Origin: an uncultured delta proteobacterium
GTDB taxonomy: Bacteria > Desulfobacterota > Binatia > UBA9968
DNA: 64,000 nucleotides
NCBI GenBank assembly: GCA_963755715.1
Contig: CAVWLW010000001.1
Location: 1-64,000, forward strand
Direction of reading: 5' to 3'
Positions 50,253 through 62,676 of this stretch are shown here, piece after piece. The position numbers and the translations under genes were made by a program. Every line of letters begins with the position of its first letter. Position 1 is the stretch's first letter. Under the pieces are notes generated by a model. It was not told the DNA's origin, made no database searches, and saw nothing but the letters and a program-made list of their open reading frames with translations.

Positions 50253-51111
50253 TTATTTCTTGCTCGCGACCAACGCCGTGATTTCCGGCGTCTGCATGCC
50301 GTCTTTGAGCAAGTCGCACGTGCCTTTTTGTAAAATCTCCTGCGCTAAACGCTTCGCGCCGGTGATCGCGGCTTTCATAAAACCCGAGCCGTAGCTCACC
50401 CGCGCCACGCCTAAATCTTGCAGCTCTTTAATGCTCGGCGATTGCGGTCCGGCGAGAATACTGACCGGCGCTTTCACTTCCTTCGCCACGGTGCCCAATC
50501 GTTTCAGCGGCATGGAGACTGAGATAAAAAATGCAATCGCCGCCAGCCTCGGCGTAGGCATTGCCGCGCCGAATCGCTTCGTCGAGCGCCTTCTTCGGAT
50601 CGTCGGGCATAACGTGAAACGCATCGACCCGCGCGTTGAGAAAAAACTCGCTGCCGAGTTCGCGCTTTGCATCCATGACAGTTTTTATTTTGCGCAGTTG
50701 CTGCGACAGCTCGACCAATCCGCCTTTGCCTTTGGCGGCGCCGTCCTCGAGATTCATGCCGGCCACACCGCGCGCCACCAGCGCGCGCACCGTGTCGCCG
50801 ACGCCGGCTTCATCGCCGTAGCCCCTCTCGCCATCGGCGTTGAATGGCACTGTCACGGCGGCGGCGAAACTGCCACTGACCTCGATAAACATTTCCCGGC
50901 TCATCACCTCGCCGTCGGGATAACCCAACGCGACGGCGATGCCGCCGCTGGTTCCTTGGATCGCTTTGAATCCCATCTGTTCGAACAAGAGCGCGCTCAA
51001 AACATCGTAGGCGCCGGGCATGACAAGTATCTCCGGCGCGCGCACAAGCTCGCGGAGCTTGCGGCTTTTGGCGTTGGCGGTAGTGATCATCGCATTTGGT
51101 ATCGGCTCCAT
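50253..51111 (-). CDS. Isocitrate lyase/PEP mutase family protein (frameshift ~50515)
   Basis: PGAYD..SA, GYPDGE, D.E.GYG, NLEDG, NARVD, AYAEAGGDCIF. Confidence 0.87.
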
Positions 51112-51229
51112 CGTGACCTCCAGATATTTTTACAATAGTCGATCGTATCGTACGGCCTAACGGCGGATGGACGCAAGCGCCGGCGCGGGATGGACGCCGA
51201 TGCGATGCGCCGGGAAAAAATGAATGGCG

Positions 51230-52588
51230 CTATAGTGCGCGCGCGCCGCCGTGCCACTTATCCATGTGCGCGCGTTCGCTTTCGGAGAGCGCCTCGGCCC
51301 GGTAGAAGCGCTCGTAGAACTCGCTGTCGAGATGGCAGGCTTGAAAGCCGAGCACCGTGCGAAAAGGCGGCATGTACGCGGGAAATCGACCGTAGCGAGC
51401 ATGAATGTATTCGCAGTAAGCAATGGTCGCGTCGACCGCAGCGGAACTGATTTCCGGTAACAGCCTCGGCGATCGCCGCCGGATCGCGCCAGGCGCTGTG
51501 CGCCGCGCCGCCGCGGAACAGGCCTTGCGCGCCAAACTTCGCTTCCACGACGGCGCGCACGGCGTCTTTCATGCTCGGGTAGTACGGCGGACAGTAGGGC
51601 TGGAGCAAAATGTCGCCATCCCGCTCCAAGCCCAAAGCATAACGAATAGCCTGATTGCGACCGAGCAGACGCATCACCTCCCGGGTGAAAATATTCGCGC
51701 CGAGATATTTGCTCGCTGGCATCGCGCCCATGCGAAAACCCAAGGCTTCAAACCAGCTGAACTCATGCTCGGCAAAGTTGGGAAAACCGCCGAGCCCCAT
51801 GGCTTGGCAGATCAAGCCCAAATTTTGCAACATCATGCCTTGCTCTGCGGTGACCAGCTCCGAAACCATCAACTCCAAGCGCTGCACCGTGAGCACGCGG
51901 CCGTCAGAAGGATCGTCATGCAAATGGCCGCCTTTGCTGCGCGCGAAACGGCCGAGGCCGGCGGCGCGGAAGCCGGCGCGCTCATCGACGACAAAAGCGC
52001 CGCTATGTTCGTTAAAAATCTCGAGCAACCCGTTGATGTACATGAAGGTCAATTCATTGATCGGCAAGAAATAGCTCGTCCCGGAGCGTAGAGCGACCAG
52101 CGGTTGACATTGACATTAAACATCGGCGCCACCGGCGGCGCTGCCCGTCCGTCCTTGATTTTCACTCGCAGGCGCTGATAGAGCGCGGTGAAATCTTTTT
52201 TGTTCGCCTGTTCGACCAATCTCGCGATTTCCTGCGCTGGAAAATCTTGCGGCCGCTTGATCAAGTAAGTACCGTCGTCGTTGATGACAACTAACGAAAC
52301 CGTTTGGATCGCGTCGCCGCTGGCGATGGTCCGGCCGAGGGAGCGCGCTACGATCGCGCCGCCCTGGCCTTCGGCAAAGGGTAAATCGAGCAGAGCAAAT
52401 CCCGTAATGCCGCCGGCAGCAAACGTCAAACAGGCCTCTTCTTCTTCGCTTAGCGGAAACGGCGCATGCCGGCTTTGGTACGCCAGCGGTCCGGCCGGCA
52501 TCTTCATGCCCAAGCCAAAGCGCCGCGAGCGACGCTTCGTCAGCGCATCGAGCAGCGAATAATCGCCGAGCGTGTTTGTTGTCGACAT
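51230..52588 (-). CDS. Hypothetical protein, possibly nitroreductase-like fold (two frameshifts)
   Basis: RRSRRF, PLSEEEE..L, EQG...QNL.L..QAMGLGG resemble FMN-dependent nitroreductase motifs. Confidence 0.6.
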
Positions 52589-52664
52589 AGAAGCGCCTCC
52601 CATGCCCGCTTCTTATCACAGGAAGAAGCCGCGTAAGAGGCGCAAAATCCGGCCTTGAAATAGC

Positions 52665-53139
52665 CTAAGACTTTTCGACGATATCGCTCTTGAGGCTGGC
52701 AAACAGAGTAAGGATCTCGTTTCTCTCTTTATCGGGCACTTTAAATTTGTCCATTGTCGCCGTCAGGTGCTTCACGGTGATTTGCCAGTCCGACTCGGTA
52801 ATTCCCAGGCCCGCATGAACGGTCTTCATGCTTCTGCCGAAATAGTAGCAGGGTCCACCGCTCGCTTCGCAAAGCTGGTCGACCACGTGCTGGCGCAACT
52901 TACGCAGCGAATCCGCGCTGACACCGACAAAAAAACGGCTCATCTGTTTATCCGCGGCCAGCCGGCCAAGAAAATCATCCGTGACCGCCGCGATCGCATC
53001 GTAACCACCGAGGCGCTTGTACAACGACGGCGCGGCGCTGGATGATTGGGCTTGCGCCGGGCGACTCGGGACTGAACGTTCCGCACAACGTGACTGCCAA
53101 AATCACCAAGCCGACTTTTAAAGCTAATTTGCCTCTCAT
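52665..53139 (-). CDS. Group I truncated hemoglobin with N-terminal signal peptide (frameshift ~53050-53075)
   Basis: LYKRLGG, GGP..Y.GRSMKTVHAGLGIT; MRGKLALKVGLVILAV leader. Confidence 0.85.
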
Positions 53140-53172
53140 GTTTTTTCCTCCGATCGATAGTTATTCCCAGCC

Positions 53173-54773
53173 TCACAACCGAATGAAACCGCCGCTCACG
53201 AGCGCTTGGCAGGTGAGTCCGACGCCAAAGAGCACGATGAACACGGACGAAGTCAAAGGCAGCCAGCGGGTCACGATTCGCCCTTCGCCGTGAAACCGCG
53301 CCATGAATTGGCGCGCATAAACCATCAAAACACCGATGGCGATCAGCACGGCCGCCAAGCCCATGCTAAAGGCAACGATCAGCAGCAAGCCGAAGCCGAT
53401 CCGCTGCATCGATACCGCGCTCAAGAGCACGACCAGAGCCGCGGGGCACGGCACGATGCCGCCGCTGATGCCGAGGGTCATGAGCTCGCGCAATGATACT
53501 TGGCCCTCGTGATGATCGTGCTGGTGCCCATGGCCGTGATGGTGCGCGTGATGATGTGGGTGGCCCAGCCCATGATGCGAATGACCGTGATGAACATGAC
53601 CCGAGAGCGCGTCTTTCCCAGATAACGCCGCACCAAAAGAATCACGCCGAGCACCAAGATCATGACCCCGGATACCAATCCCAACCAGGGATAAAGCTGC
53701 TCCGGCACGATGTACTGCGAAGCATAGAGAGTGACCGCGCCGAGCAGATACACGCCCGCGGTGTGCGCCGCGGTGACGATCAAGCCGAGCAGCAACGCAT
53801 GCTTGAACGTGCCGCGCGAGCCGACGAGATACGCCGCGACCAAAGTCTTGCCATGTCCGGGCTCAAGGGCGTGAAACGCGCCGAGGCCGACGGCAACGCC
53901 AAGCGCCAGCAGAACGATTCCCAAGCCGAGCTGCTTGGTTGCCATAATATCCGTGAACGAATTGCGCGGCGTCGTTTGCCTGTTGGCTGCGAGTTGGACG
54001 GAAGAATCGTCGCTTGACCTTGCAGAATTCAAGTTTGTGTCTACCCTGTAGGTTTGCTCCGGCGGTAGAATTTCGTTCGACGGCTCTAACGTCTGACGAG
54101 TTGTTTTGGCGACCGAGATCGGACTGCGCACGGGAAGAACCGCTGGCGGAACGGTGCCGACGGTAAAATTGATGCGCGCTTCCAACTGCTGCGGCGGGCT
54201 GTTTAGGAGATCGGTCGGGTAATCGCTTAATTGTCGGCTGCGATCCGTGCCGGGAACCGAACTATTAATCAACTTCAAGCCGGCATCTGCTACCGCGATA
54301 ATTTCTTTCCAGCCGGCTCGTCCGGGAAAATTGCCATCGCGATAATCCAATGACCGTTCTTCGCCCATCGATGCTTCTTCGAGCTTTGCTCTAAAAAGCA
54401 TGCCGATTTTCATCGTCGGCAAACCACCCGCGCCCGGCGGAAAAATGATCTCCCTCGAATCAAGTTGAAGCCATAGTGGCTTGCCGCCGACCTGCAGCGA
54501 CAAACCATCGCGCAGAATCTCCGCCTTGCGTGTGAGATAGGCTTGTAAGTTGACGTCGTCGAGATCGACGGTGATCCTGTTTTCTTGCATTTCCTGGAAA
54601 GTCGGAATTTCGGCCATATCGATGATGTATCTGAGCTCGACCGCGTCTTTGCCGATACGAATCGCCGAATAATGGCTGATGCTGAAATTTCCCAGAGGAT
54701 GAGCCGTCGCTCGGTCGGCGCCGAAAATCGTCAAAACGGCGAACCAGATAACGGCGATCCGGCGCATGTCCAT
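53173..54773 (-). CDS. Ni/Co transporter (RcnA/HoxN family) fused to an exported N-terminal domain, His-rich loop (frameshift ~53610)
   Basis: AHPLGNFS, HALEPGHGKT, HHGHSHH..HHHAHHHGHGHQHDHH, GISGGIVPCPAAL. Confidence 0.87.
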
Positions 54774-54777
54774 CGCT

Positions 54778-56088
54778 TTATCCTCCTTGGCCTTGCCTCT
54801 CGACGCCGGCTCGGTCAGTGCTGTGCTCCGAGCGCTCGAGGATTTCTGCGGCAGTTGCGCTAAAGACGGGATGAAAATTGCGATTGGTGCTGAGCGCGAG
54901 AGAAAGAAATTCGGTAGCTTTCGCCTTCGCGTCCAAAGACGAGTAAATCATGCCCGCGTGGAAAAACAGCTTGGCGTCTTTCGTGCCTAACTTGAGCGCT
55001 TCTTCGATAGCGGCGCGCGCTTCGTCGAGTCTGCCGTTCTTGTAAAGATTCCAGGCCAAAAGATCGTAGGCATAAATATCGCGGCGGTAATCCAACTCGC
55101 GCTGCGCCAGCTCCAGCCCGACATTTAATTTCAGGTCGTGATCGGCGTAAAAGTAAGCGAGCTCCCGGTTGTAAAGAACCTTGTTGATCTCGTTCAGCCG
55201 GCCGATGTATTCGACCAGCGCATACTGTTGACGCGCTTGCTCGTCTCGCCCCGTCTTCGCGTAGATGTCGCCCAGCGCCGCGGCATAGTCGGGCATCGGC
55301 AGTATGGCGATGGCCTTTTGATAGAAATCGATCGCTTCATCGTAGCTCTTTTGCGCGGTGCGTAACTGCGCCATGCCGGCTAGAGCCCGATAGTAATTCG
55401 GATACGTTTGCAGCGATTGTCGATAACAACTCTCCGCCTTCAGTAAGTCACCGATGGCGAAATGCTCCATGCCGAGCTGCCACTCCGCCCAGGCGATGCC
55501 CTCGCTCGGCTGTTTTGCTGCTTTCCCAAGGGCGACAGCACGTTCTAAATCCGCAATCGCGCCCGCGCTATCGCCGCGCGTGCTCTTCAGCCCTGCCAAC
55601 CGGCTATACGAGTAGAGACTTTGTTCCAGCTGCACCATGTGATCGTACGCCGCCTCGGCTTCGGCGTACCGACCGACTTCGAGCAGCGCGTCGCCGAGAA
55701 TGCCGTAGGCGTCGCCGTCCTCGGAATTGATCTCCAAGGCTCGGCGTGCCTGAACCGCGGCGGGCGCAAATTCGTGGCGCGAATAAAAAACATAAGCGAG
55801 ATGGCGTAAAGCGCCGGCGTTTTGCGGCGCGATCGCCAAAGCCTTTTGCAATGCTTCCTCGGCGCGGTTGAAATAGCTCGGGTCGCCGGATTCTCTGGCT
55901 TTACGGATCAAAGCGTCGCCGAGCCCGAGTAAGACAGTCGTATTGCGCGGATTGCGCTTGAGCATTTGCTGGTAGTAGCCGATCTGATAATCGGTGCGAG
56001 CTTGCTGCGCCAGTGAAAGCTCCACCGCGACGCTGAAAATACTTAACGCGGTGAGAATCGTCACGATCATGCTTTGTTGGAATTTCAT
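54778..56088 (-). CDS. Exported tetratricopeptide repeat protein
   Basis: Signal peptide, multiple TPR-like helices, AW.LY..G motif. Confidence 0.85.
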   Translation of the reverse strand: MKFQQSMIVTILTALSIFSVAVELSLAQQARTDYQIGYYQQMLKRNPRNTTVLLGLGDALIRKARESGDPSYFNRAEEALQKALAIAPQNAGALRHLAYVFYSRHEFAPAAVQARRALEINSEDGDAYGILGDALLEVGRYAEAEAAYDHMVQLEQSLYSYSRLAGLKSTRGDSAGAIADLERAVALGKAAKQPSEGIAWAEWQLGMEHFAIGDLLKAESCYRQSLQTYPNYYRALAGMAQLRTAQKSYDEAIDFYQKAIAILPMPDYAAALGDIYAKTGRDEQARQQYALVEYIGRLNEINKVLYNRELAYFYADHDLKLNVGLELAQRELDYRRDIYAYDLLAWNLYKNGRLDEARAAIEEALKLGTKDAKLFFHAGMIYSSLDAKAKATEFLSLALSTNRNFHPVFSATAAEILERSEHSTDRAGVERQGQGG

Positions 56089-56110
56089 GTCCGGTCTCCT
56101 TCGCACGCAG

Positions 56111-56144
56111 TCGCCGGAGGAGGACGCTCATCCTCCTCCGGCGA
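56111..56144. terminator. Strong intra-operon hairpin (14-bp perfect stem)
   Basis: TCGCCGGAGGAGGA-6 nt-TCCTCCTCCGGCGA between DUF4331 and TPR; no U-tract, so it may be an mRNA stabiliser. Confidence 0.5.
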
Positions 56145-56152
56145 ACAGCCGG

Positions 56153-57695
56153 TCAATTACAGGGATTGGCGCCCGCTTCACCGCAGTCGATGTGCCGGCG
56201 ATTCCGGCCGTCGTATGGCGTTGGCAAATAGGGAAACACTTTGTAGATTCCGTTGGGCGTCAGATTCGATCCTTGCGCGCCCTGGAGAAAATTGACCCCG
56301 TCACCGACGCGCGCGGCGATATAGTTCGCGCCGCCCACGACTCGAATTGCGATGTCGGTTACGTCGTCGTTGGGACGGCGGCCGTTCGGAAAACCCGCCG
56401 CATCGCCCGCGAGTCCACCGAGCCGCTTTTGATTTTCCGGCTGAGTCGGCGCGACTTTCAAGTTCACGCGCAACAGCTCGGAACAGGGATTGCCGCAGTC
56501 ATTGCCGTTCAGAGCTTGACCCGGATATTTGAGCAGCAGGCCCATGAGATCGGTACGCGGCGTCTGGCGTGACCGGAACGTTGAAGATGAGCGCCAGCGC
56601 CTGGGCGATCGATGGATTTTTGTAGAATTCTTGAAACCGCGCTTCGTCCTCGGGCTCTTGTGAATTCCAAAAGTCCTTCGACGGCGTATCGATGATCAAT
56701 TCGTTAACCAACGGATTGGCCAAGCGCGAGACTTGCGTCCACGGGCCCGCGAGCACTGACGTTCCATCGCCCGCTAGGTGTTTGGTTTTTTGCCTGGCGG
56801 TCGACGCATACATGCCAATCAATGGAGTGTTCGTTTGCTCGGCCGGTTTGCCGTCCCGCGTAATTCTTGCGATCGGCACCTCGATGACGATGCTGTTCAC
56901 GTTGGTACCGCTGAACCGGTTAACACCGAATGGATTCACCGAGTCATTGGCGTCTTCTGCCTCCGTCAGCAGCGGCAGAAAGCGACGCAGATTTACCGTG
57001 TCGAACACCGCGCCGAGATCGATGTAAAAAGTTTCCGCCCGCTGACCGGCGAAAACCTTGATGCCGGTCGATGCATCGGCGTAAATCCCCTGGGCGGCGA
57101 GATCCTCATAATTCGGCATCGTCGCCGGTCCGGCGTTGGACGGCACAGCGATCAGCCTTTGGCCCTTGAACAGCTCGGTCCGCTTGTGGCCTCTGACTTC
57201 GGTGACCGTATAGGTCTGACGACGGCTGAGGCCTTCCGATCCCGCGCCGTCGAGCTTGATGATCCCTTGGACCTCGGGAACCGGAATATGAGGATTACCG
57301 ACATAGGGCAGCGGAAAAAGCAGTGAGCCTAGGATGGGGCGGGTTTCGGTCTTGAATCTGAACTCGTAGACGATATCTTCCGCCTTGCCGTCTTGGTTGT
57401 TGTCGATATTGAAGCTGTAGAGCACTTCGTCATCGAAGTTAAAATAGTTCGGCCCGTCGGCGGGATCCTGGCCGGGGATGACGTTCATAACGAACACCGC
57501 TTTGCTCGGATCTTGCCAACTGCGAAACGCGTAAGTGTCGGTGTTATCTGCCGCCGGATCGAGCGCGATCAGCGGCGCTTCTCGATGGCTGGCCGCGCGC
57601 GCGAGCGGCGCTGTCGTCGCCGTGATCATAAGCGCAGCCAGAGACACTGCCGTAAACTGATAAAAGACATGGCTCGACAAATTTTTCATGGTCAT
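56153..57695 (-). CDS. DUF4331 family exported protein (frameshift ~56565)
   Basis: ASHREAP, DNTD.YAF, FAGQR...F.IDL, QVSRL.NPLVNE, GFPNGRR..DDV.DI. Confidence 0.9.
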
Positions 57696-57791
57696 TTTCC
57701 TTTCTTGATTTTGATGGGAACGTCGCTTTCAGCTCAAACCCAACCAGGTCATTGTTGCTCTGGCCGGGTTTTTGAGTTTGCAATTATTCGG

Positions 57792-58442
57792 TTATCGGTT
57801 CGCAAAACGCTCGGGAAATTGTTTCACGATGGCGGCGGCCAGAGGGTCGGCGATCATTCCCATGTGGCCGGCTGCGCTGCGAATCGCCATGAAAGTTTTG
57901 TTCATATCGCCCGTCGCCTGCGCGTCGATGACATCTTTCAACGTCAGGACATGATCTTTCACCAGATTGGCGACCACGTCCTTGGGCAAATTAGGATTTG
58001 CCGAGGCGAGGAAGGCGCCGAAGTCTTGTGTATATTGGACGAGATCGGTGACGGCTTTATTTTTCTTGGCGTCGTCCTTGGTTGCGACGCCGACGGTATA
58101 ATCGACAACGAAGCCGATATGCTTGCGCCATAAGGGAAGAAAGGCCTGCTCGGCGCCAGCGCCATAAACCGCGCCGATAGCTTTGGCAATATCGATGGAG
58201 TTGGCGTCGAGGGCACCGGCGGCGGCTTTGAATTCGCCGTCGCGGCCGGCCAGCGCGGCGCCCGTAGCCGCGGCCGCCAGGAAAACATGCTCGCGAAACA
58301 ATGAATTGAGACCCGTTCTTAAATCCGAGCTCATCGCGCCATGGTGGCTCATCTCGGCCGCGACTGCGCTCGCCGTGTGGCCGGCGCCGAGTAACGCGAC
58401 CATCACGGCCGCGCCGACAAAGTTTTTGCATGCGATCTTCAT
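57792..58442 (-). CDS. Exported helical protein with spaced His residues (putative metal-binding)
   Basis: Signal peptide; EH, LW..HI, DHV and AGHM motifs. Confidence 0.65.
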   Translation of the reverse strand: MKIACKNFVGAAVMVALLGAGHTASAVAAEMSHHGAMSSDLRTGLNSLFREHVFLAAAATGAALAGRDGEFKAAAGALDANSIDIAKAIGAVYGAGAEQAFLPLWRKHIGFVVDYTVGVATKDDAKKNKAVTDLVQYTQDFGAFLASANPNLPKDVVANLVKDHVLTLKDVIDAQATGDMNKTFMAIRSAAGHMGMIADPLAAAIVKQFPERFANR

Positions 58443-58496
58443 TTTCAGTTCTCTCCTTTTTTGTTTGTATTGCGTAGGTCAGAATTGCCGACAATT

Positions 58497-58907
58497 TTAT
58501 TGGACGTGGATTTGTCCGCGCATGGATGGGTGGCGGTCGCAGAAATACTCGTAAACACCCGGACGATCGAAGGTGTAACTGGCTGTGGCACCCTTGGCGG
58601 GAAAATTGAGACTTACATTTTCCAGTCTTTCCGGTGTGCCCAAAGTGACGGTGTGCCGGATGTCGTCCTGATTTACCCACGTCACCGTCGTGCCGGCTTT
58701 GATCTCCAATTGGCCCGGCTGATATTGGAAGAGTTGAATCGTTACCGCGGCTGGCGGCTGGGAACGTGGGCCCACGCTTTCGCCGCTCGCCACAACAGCG
58801 CTCTGTTTCTGAGGAATGTCGTCACAGTCCTCATGTGCATGCAGCGGCGAACTCCCGGCCAAGACGCTCGCGGTCAAGACTGCTGCGCTCCGCCAATGCC
58901 CTTTCAT
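58497..58907 (-). CDS. Cupredoxin (plastocyanin/amicyanin-like blue copper protein)
   Basis: G.TVTW.N.D...HTV and YFCDRHPSMRG type-1 Cu ligands. Confidence 0.88.
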   Translation of the reverse strand: MKGHWRSAAVLTASVLAGSSPLHAHEDCDDIPQKQSAVVASGESVGPRSQPPAAVTIQLFQYQPGQLEIKAGTTVTWVNQDDIRHTVTLGTPERLENVSLNFPAKGATASYTFDRPGVYEYFCDRHPSMRGQIHVQ

Positions 58908-58966
58908 CGCGTCTCCTCCTTGTCTGTCGTTGTCAGCTAAACCGACTTTGGCTTTCTGTGTCGGTC

Positions 58967-58992
58967 TACGAACGAGCAGCAAGCTTTGGATT
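58967..58992 (-). promoter_or_regulatory. ECF sigma-type promoter AATCCAAA-N14-CGTA facing the cupredoxin/DUF4331 operon
   Basis: Same elements and spacing as the divergent copy at 59041. Confidence 0.72.
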
Positions 58993-59040
58993 GCTCAAAT
59001 CTTCGATTTCTTTTGCCGCAAAAAATTCTTTGCAGCGCTA

Positions 59041-59066
59041 AATCCAAACCGGTGGGTTCGAACGTA
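59041..59066 (+). promoter_or_regulatory. ECF sigma-type promoter AATCCAAA-N14-CGTA facing the anti-sigma/sigma operon
   Basis: Autoregulatory position; matches the minus-strand copy. Confidence 0.72.
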
Positions 59067-59141
59067 AAGAGTATTAGGTGTTGTTTGCGCCGCGAAATTG
59101 ACTCGGGCTAGAATGGCTCGGTTCAATCGAGCAGGTGACTT

Positions 59142-59700
59142 ATGGATCACGAAAATTGGTTGGAATTGGCAGATGTCTACGCTGCGGAGGCCTTGGACGG
59201 GGAAGACCTGAGCGAGTTCAACGCGCACCTGGCCGCGGGCTGCCCGCTCTGCCAAGCGCGTATTCGCGAGACTCACGAAGCCCTGGCTGGTATTTCAGTT
59301 TCCTTGGAACCCATCTCTCCCGCTCCTGCGCTCAAAGAAAAAATCTTAGAACGAATCGATGCAGAACAGCCGGGCCTGGTGTTCATTCGCGCCAATGAAG
59401 GTTCGTGGATCGAGGCCGAGCCGGGCATCTTCGCAAAGATCTTGAACATGGACGCCGAGCGCGGGCGTGATCACCGCGCTGGTGCGTCTGGCGCCGGGCT
59501 CGCGCTACGCCGCTCATCGGCACCTTGGTACTGAAGAAGTTTTGGTCTTAGAGGGAAGTTGCTATTGCGGCGGCCGCCTGCTGCGCAAAGGCGACTATCA
59601 TCGCGCCGAGGTCGGCAGCGTTCATGTCGATATGCGCAGCGACGAAGGTTCGCTGATGTTGATTAGCGCGCCACTGCAAAGCGACATGCTTCCCACGTGA
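59142..59700 (+). CDS. Zinc-finger anti-sigma domain plus ChrR-like cupin (frameshift ~59468)
   Basis: HLAAGCPLC; LVRLAPG..Y..H.H.G.EE..VLEG. Confidence 0.8.
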
Positions 59701-59746
59701 TTCCAGGGATGGAGTAAACGTTGATGCTGCTCAAGACGACAGATCG

Positions 59747-60313
59747 GTGATGCCTGTGGAGCCGTTGGTCGATCCTGTGAGTTTAATCCAGCGAATCGCG
59801 GCGCAAAATCGCGACGCCTTCAGCCAGTTCTACGATCGCTACTCTCCGATAGTTTATTCCCTGGCGCTGCGCATGCTGAGAGCGCAATCCGATGCCGAAG
59901 ATTTGCTCCAAGAAATTTTTCTTCAAGTGTGGCGCCAAGCCACGGTCTATAGCGCCGAGCGCGGCAGCCCGGAAGCCTGGCTGATCAACATCGCGCGCAG
60001 CCGCGCCATCGATAAGCTCCGTTCCATACGTAGAAGAGAAAGGAGTTTTGTCTTGACCGACGATCCGGCCGCGGCGGAGTCGCCGGATAACGTAGAGACC
60101 TCAGCCGGAGAATCGGAATCTAAGTTGGTCATGAATAGCGCTTTGGCGAATTTGCCGGAAGCCCAGCGGCGCGTGCTCGAGCTCGCTTACTTTGATGGCT
60201 TGAGCCAAAGCGAGATCGCCGCGCGCCTCGCGGAACCGCTCGGCACCGTGAAAACGCGAATGCGCTCGGGTATTCAGCGCCTGAGAGGAATGCTTGGAAC
60301 ACAGGCCGCATGA
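59747..60313 (+). CDS. ECF RNA polymerase sigma factor (SigK-like)
   Basis: AEDLLQE.FLQVW, IARSRAIDKLR, LAYFDGLSQSEIA...PLGTVKTR. Confidence 0.92.
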   Translation: MMPVEPLVDPVSLIQRIAAQNRDAFSQFYDRYSPIVYSLALRMLRAQSDAEDLLQEIFLQVWRQATVYSAERGSPEAWLINIARSRAIDKLRSIRRRERSFVLTDDPAAAESPDNVETSAGESESKLVMNSALANLPEAQRRVLELAYFDGLSQSEIAARLAEPLGTVKTRMRSGIQRLRGMLGTQAA

Positions 60314-61041
60314 TGTCTACGGAGCACGCACATTGGCTGGAGCGCGGCGACATCTATGCTCTCGGTGCGCTGGACGGTGAGGAGCTGAAAGACTTCCAAG
60401 CGCATCTCGCGATGGACTGCGCGATGTGCGCTGCGTACCTCCGTGAAACCCGCGAGACTTTGAATCTGCTGCACCGCTCCCTTCGTCCGATCACGCCGCG
60501 ACCCGAGCTCAAAGCGCGACTTCTTGAGAAGGTCCGCAGTGAAAAAGTTGTTCCCATCGCGGCACTGCAGCCAAAAGCGTCGCAGTGCTGGCAGCGAATC
60601 ACGGGAATGATCGCCGCTGGAATTATTGCTGTCGTTCTGGTCGGCGCGTTTTACCAATATCGCAATCGCGCGGTGATCAATACCGCGGTCGTCAATTTAT
60701 TGCGCGATCCGTCGACCCGCGATCTGCCGCTCTACGGTGCCGGGGCCAATGCCGCAAGCCAAGGGCGATTTCTCTGGAACGATTCCGGCGAGGGTCATAT
60801 CTTCGTCGCCAATTTACCGTCGGCGCCGCGAGGAAAAACCTACGCGGTGTGGACGATTGCGCGCAACTCCGCCCCGCGCTACGTCGGCGCACTCAACACC
60901 GACGCGAACGGACAAGGCGGTGTGCACATCAAATCAACTGCCAGCGCAGCGCCCATTGAAACCTTTGCCGTCACATTGGAAAACGCAGGCACGACCACCG
61001 CTCCTGCCGGGCCGATGGTGCTGGTATCAAAACAATCCTAA
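60310..61041 (+). CDS. Anti-sigma factor, RskA family
   Basis: YALGALD, HLAMDCAMC, single TM helix, Y.VW and FAVTLE..G...P.GP. Confidence 0.88.
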   Translation: MMSTEHAHWLERGDIYALGALDGEELKDFQAHLAMDCAMCAAYLRETRETLNLLHRSLRPITPRPELKARLLEKVRSEKVVPIAALQPKASQCWQRITGMIAAGIIAVVLVGAFYQYRNRAVINTAVVNLLRDPSTRDLPLYGAGANAASQGRFLWNDSGEGHIFVANLPSAPRGKTYAVWTIARNSAPRYVGALNTDANGQGGVHIKSTASAAPIETFAVTLENAGTTTAPAGPMVLVSKQS

Positions 61042-61049
61042 GAACCCAA

Positions 61050-61098
61050 GGGCGACCGCCGGTCACCCCTACACGGGCGCAGCATGCTGCGCCCCTAC
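61050..61098 (-). repeat. Tandem GTAG-type REP elements
   Basis: Reverse strand reads GTAGGGGCGCAGCATGCTGCGCCC and GTAGGGGTGACCGGCGGTCGCCC. Confidence 0.7.
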
Positions 61099-61572
61099 AT
61101 TTTTTGTGTTCTTTGCGTTCTTTGTGGCCATTTTCTTGTCTTTTTCAGAATCATTTTCCGGTGTGGAATGCCGGCTTCGTCGAAAACCGCACCGACGCAG
61201 CGAAATCCCAGCTTCTCATAGAACTCGATCACCGGCACTTGCGCGTGCAAATAGATTGATCGCGCGCCCAGCTTCTTTGCCGTCGCAATCGCCCGCCGGA
61301 GCAATTTTTTCCCCACGCCTTTACCACGATAACTTTTGAGCACCGCCATGCGGCCGATTTTGGCGCTACCGTGATGCGACACGACTCTCGCGGTCCCAAC
61401 GGCTTTTCCCTCGGAAGTTGCCAGAAAATGAATCGCGCGGTCATCGTCGCGATCGAGCTCGATTGCAGCGGGCACGCGCTTGTTCGCGCACAAATACACG
61501 CATGCGGATCGCGAAGGCTTGTGCCTTTGCTTCGTCCGAAGAAATCTGTTTTATCTGAATGACTGTTTTCAC
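61095..61572 (-). CDS. GNAT acetyltransferase, ElaA/YjcF-like (frameshift ~61480-61500)
   Basis: KIGRMAVL..YRG.G.G, LHAQ...FYEKLGF, EAGIPH. Confidence 0.85.
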
Positions 61573-61631
61573 GGCTACTCTCTACATAATTTTCTTTGCG
61601 CCAACGACTGAAGCATAAAGGATTGACACTA

Positions 61632-62676
61632 ATGAGCGAGAAAACCAACGGTAAGTCGCCACACTTGACCTTTGGCGTCCGGGTTCCCAACTCCGGGCCG
61701 CTGGCGACGGTCGAATCAATGGTCGAAGTCGCTCAGGAAGCGGAGTCTCTCGGTTTCGATTCGGTTTGGGTTCACGATCATCTTACTTGGTCGGACGAAA
61801 TCCATCGCACGCACATTTCATCGGGAGCCGACCATTCGCACCAGAGCAACGAGAGTCCGGACTTTTACGAAGCGATGACTTCACTGCTCGTATCTCGCCG
61901 GACTGGTTCATTCGGTGCGCCTCGGCATCGCTTGCGTTGTGGTCCCCTGTCGCAATCCGCTGCTCGCCGCCAAGCAGATCGCCACCCTCGACGTGCTCTG
62001 CAAAGGCCGACTGGATATCGGCGTCGGCATCGGCTCGCCGTCGACGATCAAGTCGCGTGAATATGAAGTGCTCGGCGTCAATCGCAAACAGCGCGGCAAA
62101 ATCGCCGACGATCACCTGCGCGCGATGAAACGGATTTGGACCACACATCCGTCCAGCTACGAAGGATCGTTTGTGAGTTTTAAAGACGCCGAGATTTGTC
62201 CAAAGCCATTGCAGAAGCCTCATCCGCCACTGTGGGTCGGCGGCTGGACCGAGGCCGCCATGAAACGAGCCGCCGCGCTTGGCGACGGCTGGCTGCCGGC
62301 GTGGCTGCTGCCGGAAGACATTGGCAAGCGCTTTCGCGAGCTCAAGGAAATGGCCGAGCGCCACGGCCGCGATCCGGAAAAAATCCATCTCGGCATCGAA
62401 GTCTACGGCTGCATCGACGAGGATCCGGCCAAAGCGCGGCGCGAGGGCTTCGGCACCCTGGCGATCGGCCAAAGCACCTTCGAGAGATTCATGAGTGTCG
62501 AACAGTTGGCGGAAGTGAGTTTGATCGGCTCACCGGAAGAAATCCGCCGCCGGGTCAAAGCCTACAGCGACGCCGGCGTGTCGCACTTCGAGATCAAGTT
62601 CATCTACCCCAGCCTCGAGCGTCATTCACAAATGCTGCAGCTCTTCGCCCGCGAAGTCTTGGCGGCTTTCAGCTAA
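61632..62676 (+). CDS. LLM-class flavin/F420-dependent oxidoreductase (frameshift ~61885)
   Basis: AESLGFDSVWVHDH, RNPLLAAKQIATLD.L..GRL, PKP.QKPHPPLWVGG. Confidence 0.88.

Follow-up and report, generated by a model that had tools for sequence, protein, structure and literature searches.

The stretch of DNA analysed here, called the window, comprises positions 1-64,000 of contig CAVWLW010000001.1 (assembly GCA_963755715.1) from an uncultured delta proteobacterium (Binatia, UBA9968). Our subject is a gene cluster at 52665-61041, which is built around a protein of the family DUF4331 and adjoined by an extracytoplasmic function (ECF) sigma factor. On the minus strand, six same-strand genes occupy 52665-58982 with gaps of 4 to ~100 nt. 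They encode an exported, amicyanin-like type-1 cupredoxin (58497..58907; Pfam Copper-bind), an exported helical protein of 216 aa from an unnamed family, here called p216 (57792..58442), the DUF4331 protein (56153..57695; PF14224; ~511 aa when intact, with a signal peptide), an exported TPR protein immediately downstream of it (54778..56106; matched by many Pfam TPR families), a fusion of an outer N-terminal domain (N-domain) to a NicO/RcnA-type permease (53173..54773; NicO profile) and an exported truncated haemoglobin (52665..53139; Bac_globin, PF01152). Divergent from the cupredoxin gene, the plus strand carries, in this order, a ChrR-like cytoplasmic anti-sigma factor (59142..59700; ZAS N-domain plus cupin), the ECF sigma factor (59747..60313) and an RskA-like single-pass membrane anti-sigma factor (60310..61041), whose gene overlaps that of the sigma factor by 4 nt. 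All the genes named by the initial annotation were recovered between 52665 and 61041 from the list of open reading frames (ORFs) and the Pfam and NCBIfam profiles. However, the sigma and RskA-like genes lie on the plus strand, outside the minus-strand run, and the ChrR-like gene had been missed. The statement that every product of the minus-strand run has an export signal held: an n-region, an h-region and a small-residue cleavage motif were recognised by eye in all six. Sequence comparison resolves the cluster into two modules, each conserved on its own, that stand as a mosaic behind a single ECF18/19-type promoter. DUF4331, the TPR protein and the permease make up module A; the cupredoxin and p216, here joined by the haemoglobin, make up module B.

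The evidence for module A came from 80 DUF4331 loci of 80 species, in which genes were found by crude ORF calling, clustered, searched with our own profiles and the clusters named by Pfam. A TPR gene started within 2.5 kb downstream of DUF4331 on the same strand in 46 of the 71 loci whose flank reached 1.5 kb or more; among the 65 loci with at least 4 kb, a TPR gene was found downstream in 44. In 32 of these 65, a permease with an N-terminal-His periplasmic domain was also present downstream, and it was of NicO type in 18 loci and of HupE_UreJ_2 type in 14; in the HupE_UreJ_2 fusions the His directly follows the signal peptide. Module A recurs in Acidobacteriota, Proteobacteria, Actinomycetota, Chloroflexota and others, and TonB-dependent receptors were found in 9/47 DUF4331 loci. 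By these counts the gene arrangement is far beyond chance. The genes of module B behaved differently. p216 occurred in 0/80 DUF4331 loci, the cupredoxin in 1/80 (25% identity), and for the globin only C-terminal fragments were seen, in L005, L049 and perhaps L025. Thus, neighbourhood statistics, which had been proposed as a check on co-conservation, support a recurring DUF4331-TPR-permease set but not the cupredoxin-p216 pair or the globin as its companions. Some acidobacterial loci have a second permease, of NiCoT type (H-x4-D-H), beside the N-domain-NicO fusion (L041:8868-9818 and L042:15894-16655). In six loci of Acidobacteriota (L011, L013, L015, L022, L031 and L079) a PEP-CTERM-tailed protein of ~240 aa is encoded directly upstream of DUF4331.

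Module B was followed through 80 metagenome loci around relatives of p216, divided into close (77-99% identity) and distant (63-77% identity) ones. A cupredoxin gene stood directly upstream of p216 in 21/21 close and 29/31 distant loci (50/52 together). DUF4331 came after the pair in all nine close loci (9/9) but in none of 24 distant ones (0/24), whose flanks were otherwise varied. Furthermore, 47 of 49 loci had an ECF-type motif ahead of the cupredoxin (30 distinct instances), compared with 0/49 in the next 500 nt of the same strand, and it was kept though most distant loci lack a nearby sigma gene. On these sequence data the cupredoxin-p216 pair is an independent, widespread target of this sigma type that was fused to module A only in the clade of the window. 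Among 300 other genomes of the phylum, p216 was matched in three (21-27% identity), and none of these three relatives had a cupredoxin or the motif nearby, so that the pairing holds for the closer family only. In all, p216 has 1760 homologues in metagenomes, including tandem-duplicated forms of ~370 aa. Its mature N-terminus is rich in His and Met, and the motifs E-H, W-R-x-H, D-Y-T and H-M are conserved. Neither Pfam nor NCBIfam matched it, and a profile search of the sequences in the Protein Data Bank (PDB) gave no match. One cluster of the ESM Atlas carries an automatic "glycosyltransferase" label for p216 while the rest are unnamed; we did not trust this label since it had no support from Pfam.

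The cupredoxin scored 47.4 bits with Pfam Copper-bind (cut-off 21.2) and 34.6 bits with Cupredoxin_1. Its score with the NCBIfam amicyanin model (50.6 bits) was below the equivalog cut-off of 110, and therefore it was not filed as amicyanin proper. The ligand set His, Cys, His, Met is complete, with amicyanin-like C-x2-H-x2-M spacing. The ATG at 58907 is the probable start of the gene, since the longer ORF, which begins at 58982, would include the promoter. The mature protein is predicted to begin with H-E-D-C-D-D. This H-[ED]-[ED]-C-D-D beginning was found only in the DUF4331-linked clade of cupredoxins (58830-58907 in the window; L089-L112) and not in the loci free of DUF4331, and it may form an extra N-terminal metal site. 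The haemoglobin matched PF01152 with 61.2 bits (cut-off 21) over profile positions 2-119 of 121; it has the proximal His in an M-K-T-V-H-A-G stretch and a Leu at the B10 position. Its leader was kept in 4/4 relatives read, with the gene intact in L091, L111 and L124 and the globin frame split in L105. However, the close relative L100 has no globin gene, and in L124 the globin stands beside cupredoxin-p216 without DUF4331. From this distribution it is best described as a facultative member of the operon. In two Competibacteraceae loci (L049:12458-14182 and L025:13346-14185), ~55 aa resembling the C-terminal third of the globin are found after a HupE/UreJ-2 permease and before the sigma gene, fused in frame to the permease in L049; the stretch looks like a decayed globin gene. 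Behind the globin gene of the window, and separated from it by a weak stem (52645-52629), a conserved gene of ~450 aa lies on the minus strand (51258..52603). It is frameshifted near 52050-52067, and both its halves match one ORF in L091, L100, L105, L111 and L124. The Pfam scan gave no match for it. In five related loci it comes after the globin or the permease, and it may be the last gene of the envelope operon, which would then have seven genes instead of six.

The sigma factor gave its top scores with the NCBIfam model PRK12519 (179 bits) and the SigK model PRK09646 (166.6 bits), both below the cut-offs of these models, and was matched by Pfam Sigma70_r2 and r4. We place it in the ECF18/19 (SigK-like) clade, an assignment that is made from SigK-type models and not from ECF-group hidden Markov models and is provisional to that extent. 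SigK has a redox switch, a Cys pair in sigma-4 that is present in some subgroups only; since the 188 aa of the sigma factor in the window contain zero cysteines, this disulfide switch cannot apply to it. The RskA-like anti-sigma factor at +1 scored 58.2 bits with RskA_C (cut-off 29.4) and 110.7 bits with NF052375, above the cut-off of 100. The ChrR-like protein gave 44 bits with the same NCBIfam anti-sigma model NF052375 and also matched RskA_N, while its C-terminal part matched the ChrR-type cupin neighbours in 11 DUF4331 loci (Cupin_7 by Pfam in L076). An ECF sigma gene was found within 10 kb of DUF4331 in 26/80 loci and was adjoined by an RskA- or ChrR-type anti-sigma gene in 20 of the 26 (RskA-type 10, ChrR-type 11). 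In the window both kinds flank the sigma gene, the cytoplasmic ChrR-like one upstream and the membrane RskA-like one downstream; the two types together were seen in 0/80 related DUF4331 loci. The sigma operon ends in a terminator-like hairpin (61075..61094, plus strand; 8-bp stem with 7 G-C pairs, then a T run).

Promoter motifs were sought by a two-part word search in 49 upstream regions, with 500 shuffles as control. ATCC-N16-18-CGTA was present in 18/49 regions, while the shuffles averaged 0.44 and never exceeded 3. Among 46 related upstream regions, 16 had it ahead of a DUF4331 or sigma operon (the shuffle mean of 0.44 refers to all 49), and among 24 related loci, 8 had it ahead of the sigma operon. 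The intergenic region of the window (58983-59141) has two divergent copies of ATCC-N17-CGTA, 45 nt apart. One of them faces the cupredoxin operon and constitutes the predicted ECF18/19-type promoter of the cupredoxin-to-globin genes (58964..58994, minus strand; ATCC 58991-58988, 17-nt spacer, CGTA 58970-58967). The other faces the chrR-like/sigma/rskA-like operon (59039..59069, plus strand; ATCC 59042-59045, 17-nt spacer, CGTA 59063-59066), and its position upstream of the sigma factor's own operon implies autoregulation. These results agree with the ECF control that had been assumed for the cluster. There is no copy directly upstream of DUF4331 in the window, whereas in L005, a Binatia relative without cupredoxin or p216, the motif lies 85 nt upstream of DUF4331 itself. 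A genome-wide scan with a relaxed ECF motif returned 26 matches in 14.8 Mb of both strands, which is about the number estimated for chance, and no further regulon members could be named from it. A scan for sigma-70 promoters gave 3 sites where 4.2 were expected. Short contigs of the RNA run X15 aligned to parts of the operon with 90-100% identity; none spans a junction between two genes by 31 nt, and carry-over of DNA is possible.

In the assembly, one single-base indel each interrupts the genes of DUF4331, the permease, the globin and the ChrR-like protein, and the initial annotation had read through the frameshifts in the first three without mentioning them. As a check on the indels, contigs from soil DNA runs of three separate studies (X1, X4 and X8) were aligned to 52600-61100. 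Relative to the window, one base is left out at 53061/53062 in the globin gene (X1, X4, X8), at 56565 in DUF4331 (X1, X4, X8) and at 59468/59470 in the ChrR-like gene (X1, X8, X15), and one base is put in at 53614/53616 in the permease gene (X1, X4, X8, X15). All four indels are thus missing from the contigs of independent soil studies, indicating that the locus is intact in the population and that the breaks are assembly errors or private to the strain. Metagenome contigs with 96-99% identity to the window had single open frames for the same genes, and an intact DUF4331 relative of 511 aa (P0001) is 98% identical to the protein of the window. In the window, the extra base in the haemoglobin gene puts its signal peptide and its globin domain in different frames. 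Programmed recoding was considered and rejected, given four frameshifts in one locus, at non-slippery sites and all missing from the independent contigs. A flanking luciferase-like (F420-type) oxidoreductase gene (61596-62676, plus strand) is likewise split by a frameshift, and the six breaks in ~12 kb, four in the locus and two beside it, suggest an indel-prone assembly. Two further differences were noticed in the independent contigs: a 4-nt insertion (AGCC) at 57747 in the spacer between p216 and DUF4331, and an in-frame 3-nt deletion at 58380 in the leader of p216.

DUF4331 is a very large family, matching 5009 clusters at 50% identity (E<=0.001), with no assigned function and no solved relative, and the same two partner genes accompany it across phyla. 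The terms "DUF4331" and "PF14224" appeared in no main text of the literature searched. The sole mention found is in the supplement of PMC7826278 (Casas-Pastor et al., 2021), where DUF4331 is given as gene context, at +2 of ECF18s13 and in ECF214s1. The claim that no function was in print is in line with this search. The protein of the window matched PF14224 with 288.6 and 72.2 bits (cut-off 27) in its two frames, over profile positions 2-308 and 313-421. A shorter, distant DUF4331-like frame was seen on another contig (G000:C58:1051-2055, plus strand; 79 bits with our own profile, 44 bits with Pfam). The AlphaFold2 model (pLDDT 88, pTM 0.88) has a beta-sandwich core and a helical subdomain. 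Foldseek found no PDB match for it at E<=0.001, the top rows having TM-scores of ~0.1, and an exhaustive VIA alignment gave Sas6 as the best row (Z 7.6), followed by generic Ig and CBM rows. phmmer found no match among PDB sequences, and the ESM Atlas, with PF14224 left out, gave no usable match. As far as the model allows, DUF4331 appears to have no clear known fold, and no family could be assigned from structure.

The N-terminus of DUF4331 was more informative. The strict motif H-[RK]-[EDQ]-[AGS]-P was found near the start of 104 among 151 cluster representatives. All 97 leader-bearing representatives with this motif fit the -1/-3 rule with the predicted cut two residues before the His, and in 97/97 the predicted mature N-terminus is [A/S]-S-H. 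The seven leaderless ones (P0158, P0192, P0195, P0198, P0241, P0244 and P0252) all begin with M-S-S-H (M-S-S-H-R-E-A-P), so that the His is third after Met removal. These leaderless forms are probably cytoplasmic, yet they keep the His as third residue. The other 47 representatives are mostly N-terminally truncated fragments or near variants such as S-S-H-A-E-A-P. For the window, the predicted mature N-terminus is A-S-H-R-E-A-P. Therefore, of the two ends stressed by the initial annotation, the N-terminal motif is conserved. However, the C-terminal Cys pair is conserved in close relatives only (alignment A1), and the diverse alignment (A2) has no invariant Cys.

The permease is organised as a signal peptide, a beta-sandwich domain with the mature start H-P-L-G-N-F-S, a low-complexity linker and a NicO/RcnA-type permease part with a cytoplasmic His-rich loop. 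NicO (PF03824) gave two separate scores, since the gene is split by the frameshift: 35.1 bits for the C-terminal half (cut-off 27.7) and 26.3 bits, just below, for the N-terminal half; counted together in the genome profile search, both halves exceed the cut-off. The best named NCBIfam match was nickel/cobalt efflux PRK10019 (74 + 53 bits), below its cut-off of 195. In the N-domain, H25 follows an A-T-A cleavage motif (judged by eye), and the N-terminal His is invariant in 17/17 aligned N-domains. A model of the N-domain (pLDDT 81.8) was compared with 48,161 chains. The best structural match, and the only chain at Z>=8, was the Cu-bound protein Ang-1 (9GCE), with Z 8.9, which is moderately above background, and an rmsd of 4.3 Å over 142 of 168 residues by VIA; Foldseek gave prob 1.00 and E 3.3e-4. 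The next matches were the zinc-system proteins ZrgA (Z 7.1) and PA4063 (Z 6.3). A profile search of PDB sequences with the N-domain gave no link to 9GCE and no useful match. Taken with the X-S-H N-terminus of DUF4331, the NicO permease and its anglerase-like N-terminal-His domain bear out the link to metals that had been proposed for the cluster, as far as sequence can indicate it.

Regarding the metal and the direction of transport, the signs are divided. In the genome, which is 93.6% complete, NicO was found only in this operon by profile search. HupE_UreJ, HupE_UreJ_2 and CbiM were not found, though this search left room for nickel importers of the ABC type. A [NiFe]-hydrogenase is present, and by its gene content this is a nickel-needing genome with few candidate carriers. 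Import of Ni/Co would be favoured by the permease families, the HupE/UreJ-2 alternates, the TonB-dependent receptors and the restriction of NicO to this operon together with the [NiFe]-hydrogenase. By analogy, the Cu preference of Ang-1 would favour copper, as would the blue copper protein and the His/Met-rich p216 in the same operon. We give a probability of about one half to the reading that the locus is a sigma-controlled system that would capture Ni/Co/Cu in the periplasm and import it, and to which a copper/redox set has been added; the metal binding itself is inferred. In this reading, one ECF18/19-type (SigK-like) sigma unit would drive two operons from two back-to-back promoters: its own, with the ChrR-like cytoplasmic anti-sigma factor, the sigma factor and the RskA-like membrane anti-sigma factor, and the envelope operon of six or seven genes. 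Module A would most likely be a device for capture and import of a periplasmic trace metal (Ni/Co or Cu). DUF4331 would bind Cu(II) or Ni(II) through its free X-Ser-His N-terminus, and the TPR protein would hold the partners together. The metal would pass to the N-terminal-His site on the beta-sandwich domain of the permease and, by way of the NicO-type channel, would then reach the His-rich loop in the cytoplasm. A hand-off in this direction, from protein to permease, is the more likely one by analogy with the anglerase model (PMC12537917). Module B would be a periplasmic copper/redox set of cupredoxin and p216, here with the exported truncated haemoglobin, that was presumably inserted between promoter and module A in this Binatia clade.

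Several observations weigh against capture and import. The transmembrane part of the permease fits the RcnA efflux model best, although below its cut-off, so export is possible and would be favoured by the RcnA-like core together with the stress-type sigma control. Uptake systems are usually under metal-sensing repressors and not under stress-type ECF sigma factors. An Rfam scan of 51000-61500 found no riboswitch, only one row of chance level, and nickel importers of the ABC type may also exist in this genome. Concerning DUF4331 itself, R-E-A-P is as conserved as the His, although a plain ATCUN site does not need it, and docking of the N-terminus into the fold or the TPR partner is an alternative. 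The protein is large (~480 aa when mature) with many invariant Asp, Asn and Arg, as might be expected of an enzyme or of a binding protein stabilised by Ca, and the fold search gave no functional clue. Finally, between a third and a half of the DUF4331 loci have no permease in the flank examined, and all counts depend on crude ORF calling and home-made profiles, by which diverged TPR genes were missed.

The export signs lead to metal resistance as an alternative. The RcnA-like permease would export Ni/Co (or Cu), DUF4331, the TPR protein and the N-terminal-His domain would take up or buffer this metal in the periplasm, and the sigma factor would switch the genes on under metal or oxidative envelope stress. 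This would agree with PRK10019 as the best named match for both permease halves, with the RcnA-like His-rich loop and with a stress-type ECF sigma factor having ChrR- and RskA-type anti-sigma factors; furthermore, for RpoP of C. metallidurans, which belongs to ECF18, Ni/Co resistance is cited (supplement of PMC7826278). However, the PRK10019 scores are far under the cut-off, and the same position is taken in 14/65 loci by HupE_UreJ_2 fusions, which are treated as importers in PMC12537917. TonB-dependent receptors, importers as well, occur in the 9/47 loci given above, and the permease of the window is the only NicO, HupE or CbiM-type candidate in the genome to supply the [NiFe]-hydrogenase. 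We consider resistance unlikely. A role without metal would make DUF4331 a structural, adhesive or substrate-binding envelope protein whose N-terminal peptide is recognised by the TPR partner, the His and the permease being coincidental. TPR domains typically bind short peptides, the entire S-H-R-E-A-P is conserved beyond the first three residues, the beta-sandwich is weakly like carbohydrate-binding and Ig-type domains (best Sas6, Z 7.6), and PEP-CTERM proteins precede DUF4331 in six acidobacterial loci. But two unrelated permease families, both of Ni/Co type and both with an N-terminal-His domain, stand at the same position, the leaderless DUF4331 forms keep the His third, and the outer domain of the permease best matches a Cu-bound protein structure, which makes this role quite improbable.

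The initial annotation had proposed an integrated redox machine: DUF4331, an exported metalloenzyme, would receive its metal from the transporter and the TPR protein, with the cupredoxin and globin serving it as partners for electrons or gas (O2/NO). One predicted promoter would serve all genes in this clade and DUF4331 follows cupredoxin-p216 in every close locus (9/9), which would suit such a machine. DUF4331 is also large, with 19 invariant and many nearly invariant polar residues in A2, and H-[ED]-[ED]-C-D-D was gained by the cupredoxins of this clade alone, suggesting adaptation to the module. However, p216 (0/80), the cupredoxin (1/80) and globin fragments (2-3/80) are rare or absent in DUF4331 loci, and conversely DUF4331 stands beside 0/24 distant cupredoxin-p216 pairs, so the cupredoxin and the globin are not general partners of DUF4331. 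The globin is absent from L100 altogether. Nothing tested points to catalysis, neither a catalytic motif nor an enzyme-like fold having been found in DUF4331 by Foldseek and VIA. Such a machine is in our view very improbable, and capture and import with a separate copper/redox set is preferred.

If DUF4331 is a periplasmic Ni/Cu shuttle, it would add a missing extracytoplasmic step to the nickel and copper supply of bacteria, and in this organism this would include the supply for the [NiFe]-hydrogenase. The common promoter ties both DUF4331 and cupredoxin-p216 to SigK-type sigma factors. According to Veyrier et al. (2020; PMC7509140) the signal of SigK is unknown, and the question of the SigK/RskA signal becomes testable here by reporter and metal-titration experiments, so that the locus is a testable lead on the signal of a widespread sigma family. 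A wider view, which we put forward tentatively and regard as rather unlikely, is that the SigK/ECF18-19 family governs a pan-bacterial envelope economy of copper and nickel, its conserved targets being two modules so far undescribed. DUF4331, as an ATCUN-type shuttle of new fold, and its TPR partner would then hand Cu(II)/Ni(II) to anglerase domains on interchangeable permeases, while cupredoxin-p216, sometimes with an exported haemoglobin, would set or sense the redox state of the metal. In this soil lineage of Binatia the two modules would have been welded into one operon, where one anti-sigma factor may read the periplasm and the other the cytoplasm. The mosaic also shows that separate members of a regulon can fuse into one operon, and it cautions that not every gene of an operon is a partner in one machine.

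The closest published parallel of module A is found in the anglerases (Franco Cairo et al., Nat Commun 2025, PMC12537917). In that paper, Ang-1/Ang-2 domains are fused to HupE/UreJ-2, bind Cu and Ni, with Cu preferred by Ang-1, and are proposed to fish metal for permease importers. The fusion of the window is similar in having a signal peptide, a His directly after it, a periplasmic beta-sandwich, a flexible linker and a metal permease, and a true HupE_UreJ_2 fusion follows DUF4331-TPR in 14 related loci. However, the permease of the window is of NicO/RcnA type with a His-rich loop and not HupE/UreJ-2, and the sequence identity of its N-domain to 9GCE is only 13-15%. With RcnA/RcnB of E. coli, a nickel-cobalt efflux system, it shares the H-x-x-x-P-G-H-G-K motif of the core and the His-rich cytoplasmic loop. 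It differs in scoring far below the PRK10019 cut-off, in the large periplasmic N-terminal-His domain fused to it, and in its partners, which are DUF4331 and the TPR gene instead of rcnB. The X-Ser-His start of DUF4331 presumably corresponds to the ATCUN-type arrangement (NH2-Xaa-Xaa-His), an amino-terminal Cu(II)/Ni(II) site as in serum albumin. The predicted His would be third by either route, cleaved leader or Met removal, but unlike in a plain ATCUN site the next four residues (R-E-A-P) are equally conserved. In module B, the cupredoxin family differs from amicyanin/plastocyanin-type proteins by its pairing with the unnamed p216, and the globin differs from known TrHbN truncated haemoglobins in being exported and in having Leu at B10. 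NCBIfam equivalog models either score the two proteins under their cut-offs or give them no name. The paper on SbHbN (PMC11904497) makes no mention of export or of a cupredoxin context.

As for the regulators, the window resembles RpoE-ChrR (ECF11), a singlet-oxygen/peroxide switch, in the ZAS N-domain and ChrR-type cupin at 59142-59700, and the ECF11 promoter GTGATC / CGTA (supplement of PMC7826278) resembles the motif of the window. However, here the ChrR-type anti-sigma gene is upstream of the sigma gene, and the sigma factor groups with SigK-type models; ECF19s19 is a published subgroup with ChrR-like partners (supplement of PMC7826278). The likeness to SigK-RskA (ECF19) and ECF18 lies in the sigma factor, which scores best on SigK-type models, in the RskA-like anti-sigma factor at +1 and in ATCC-N17-CGTA, which is similar to the ECF18 motif published as TGCATCTT / CGTA (supplement of PMC7826278). 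It differs from SigK-RskA in the second, ChrR-type anti-sigma factor ahead of the sigma factor. The predicted targets are different as well: mycobacterial SigK acts on mpt70/mpt83, whereas the sigma factor of the window would act on DUF4331 and cupredoxin-p216.

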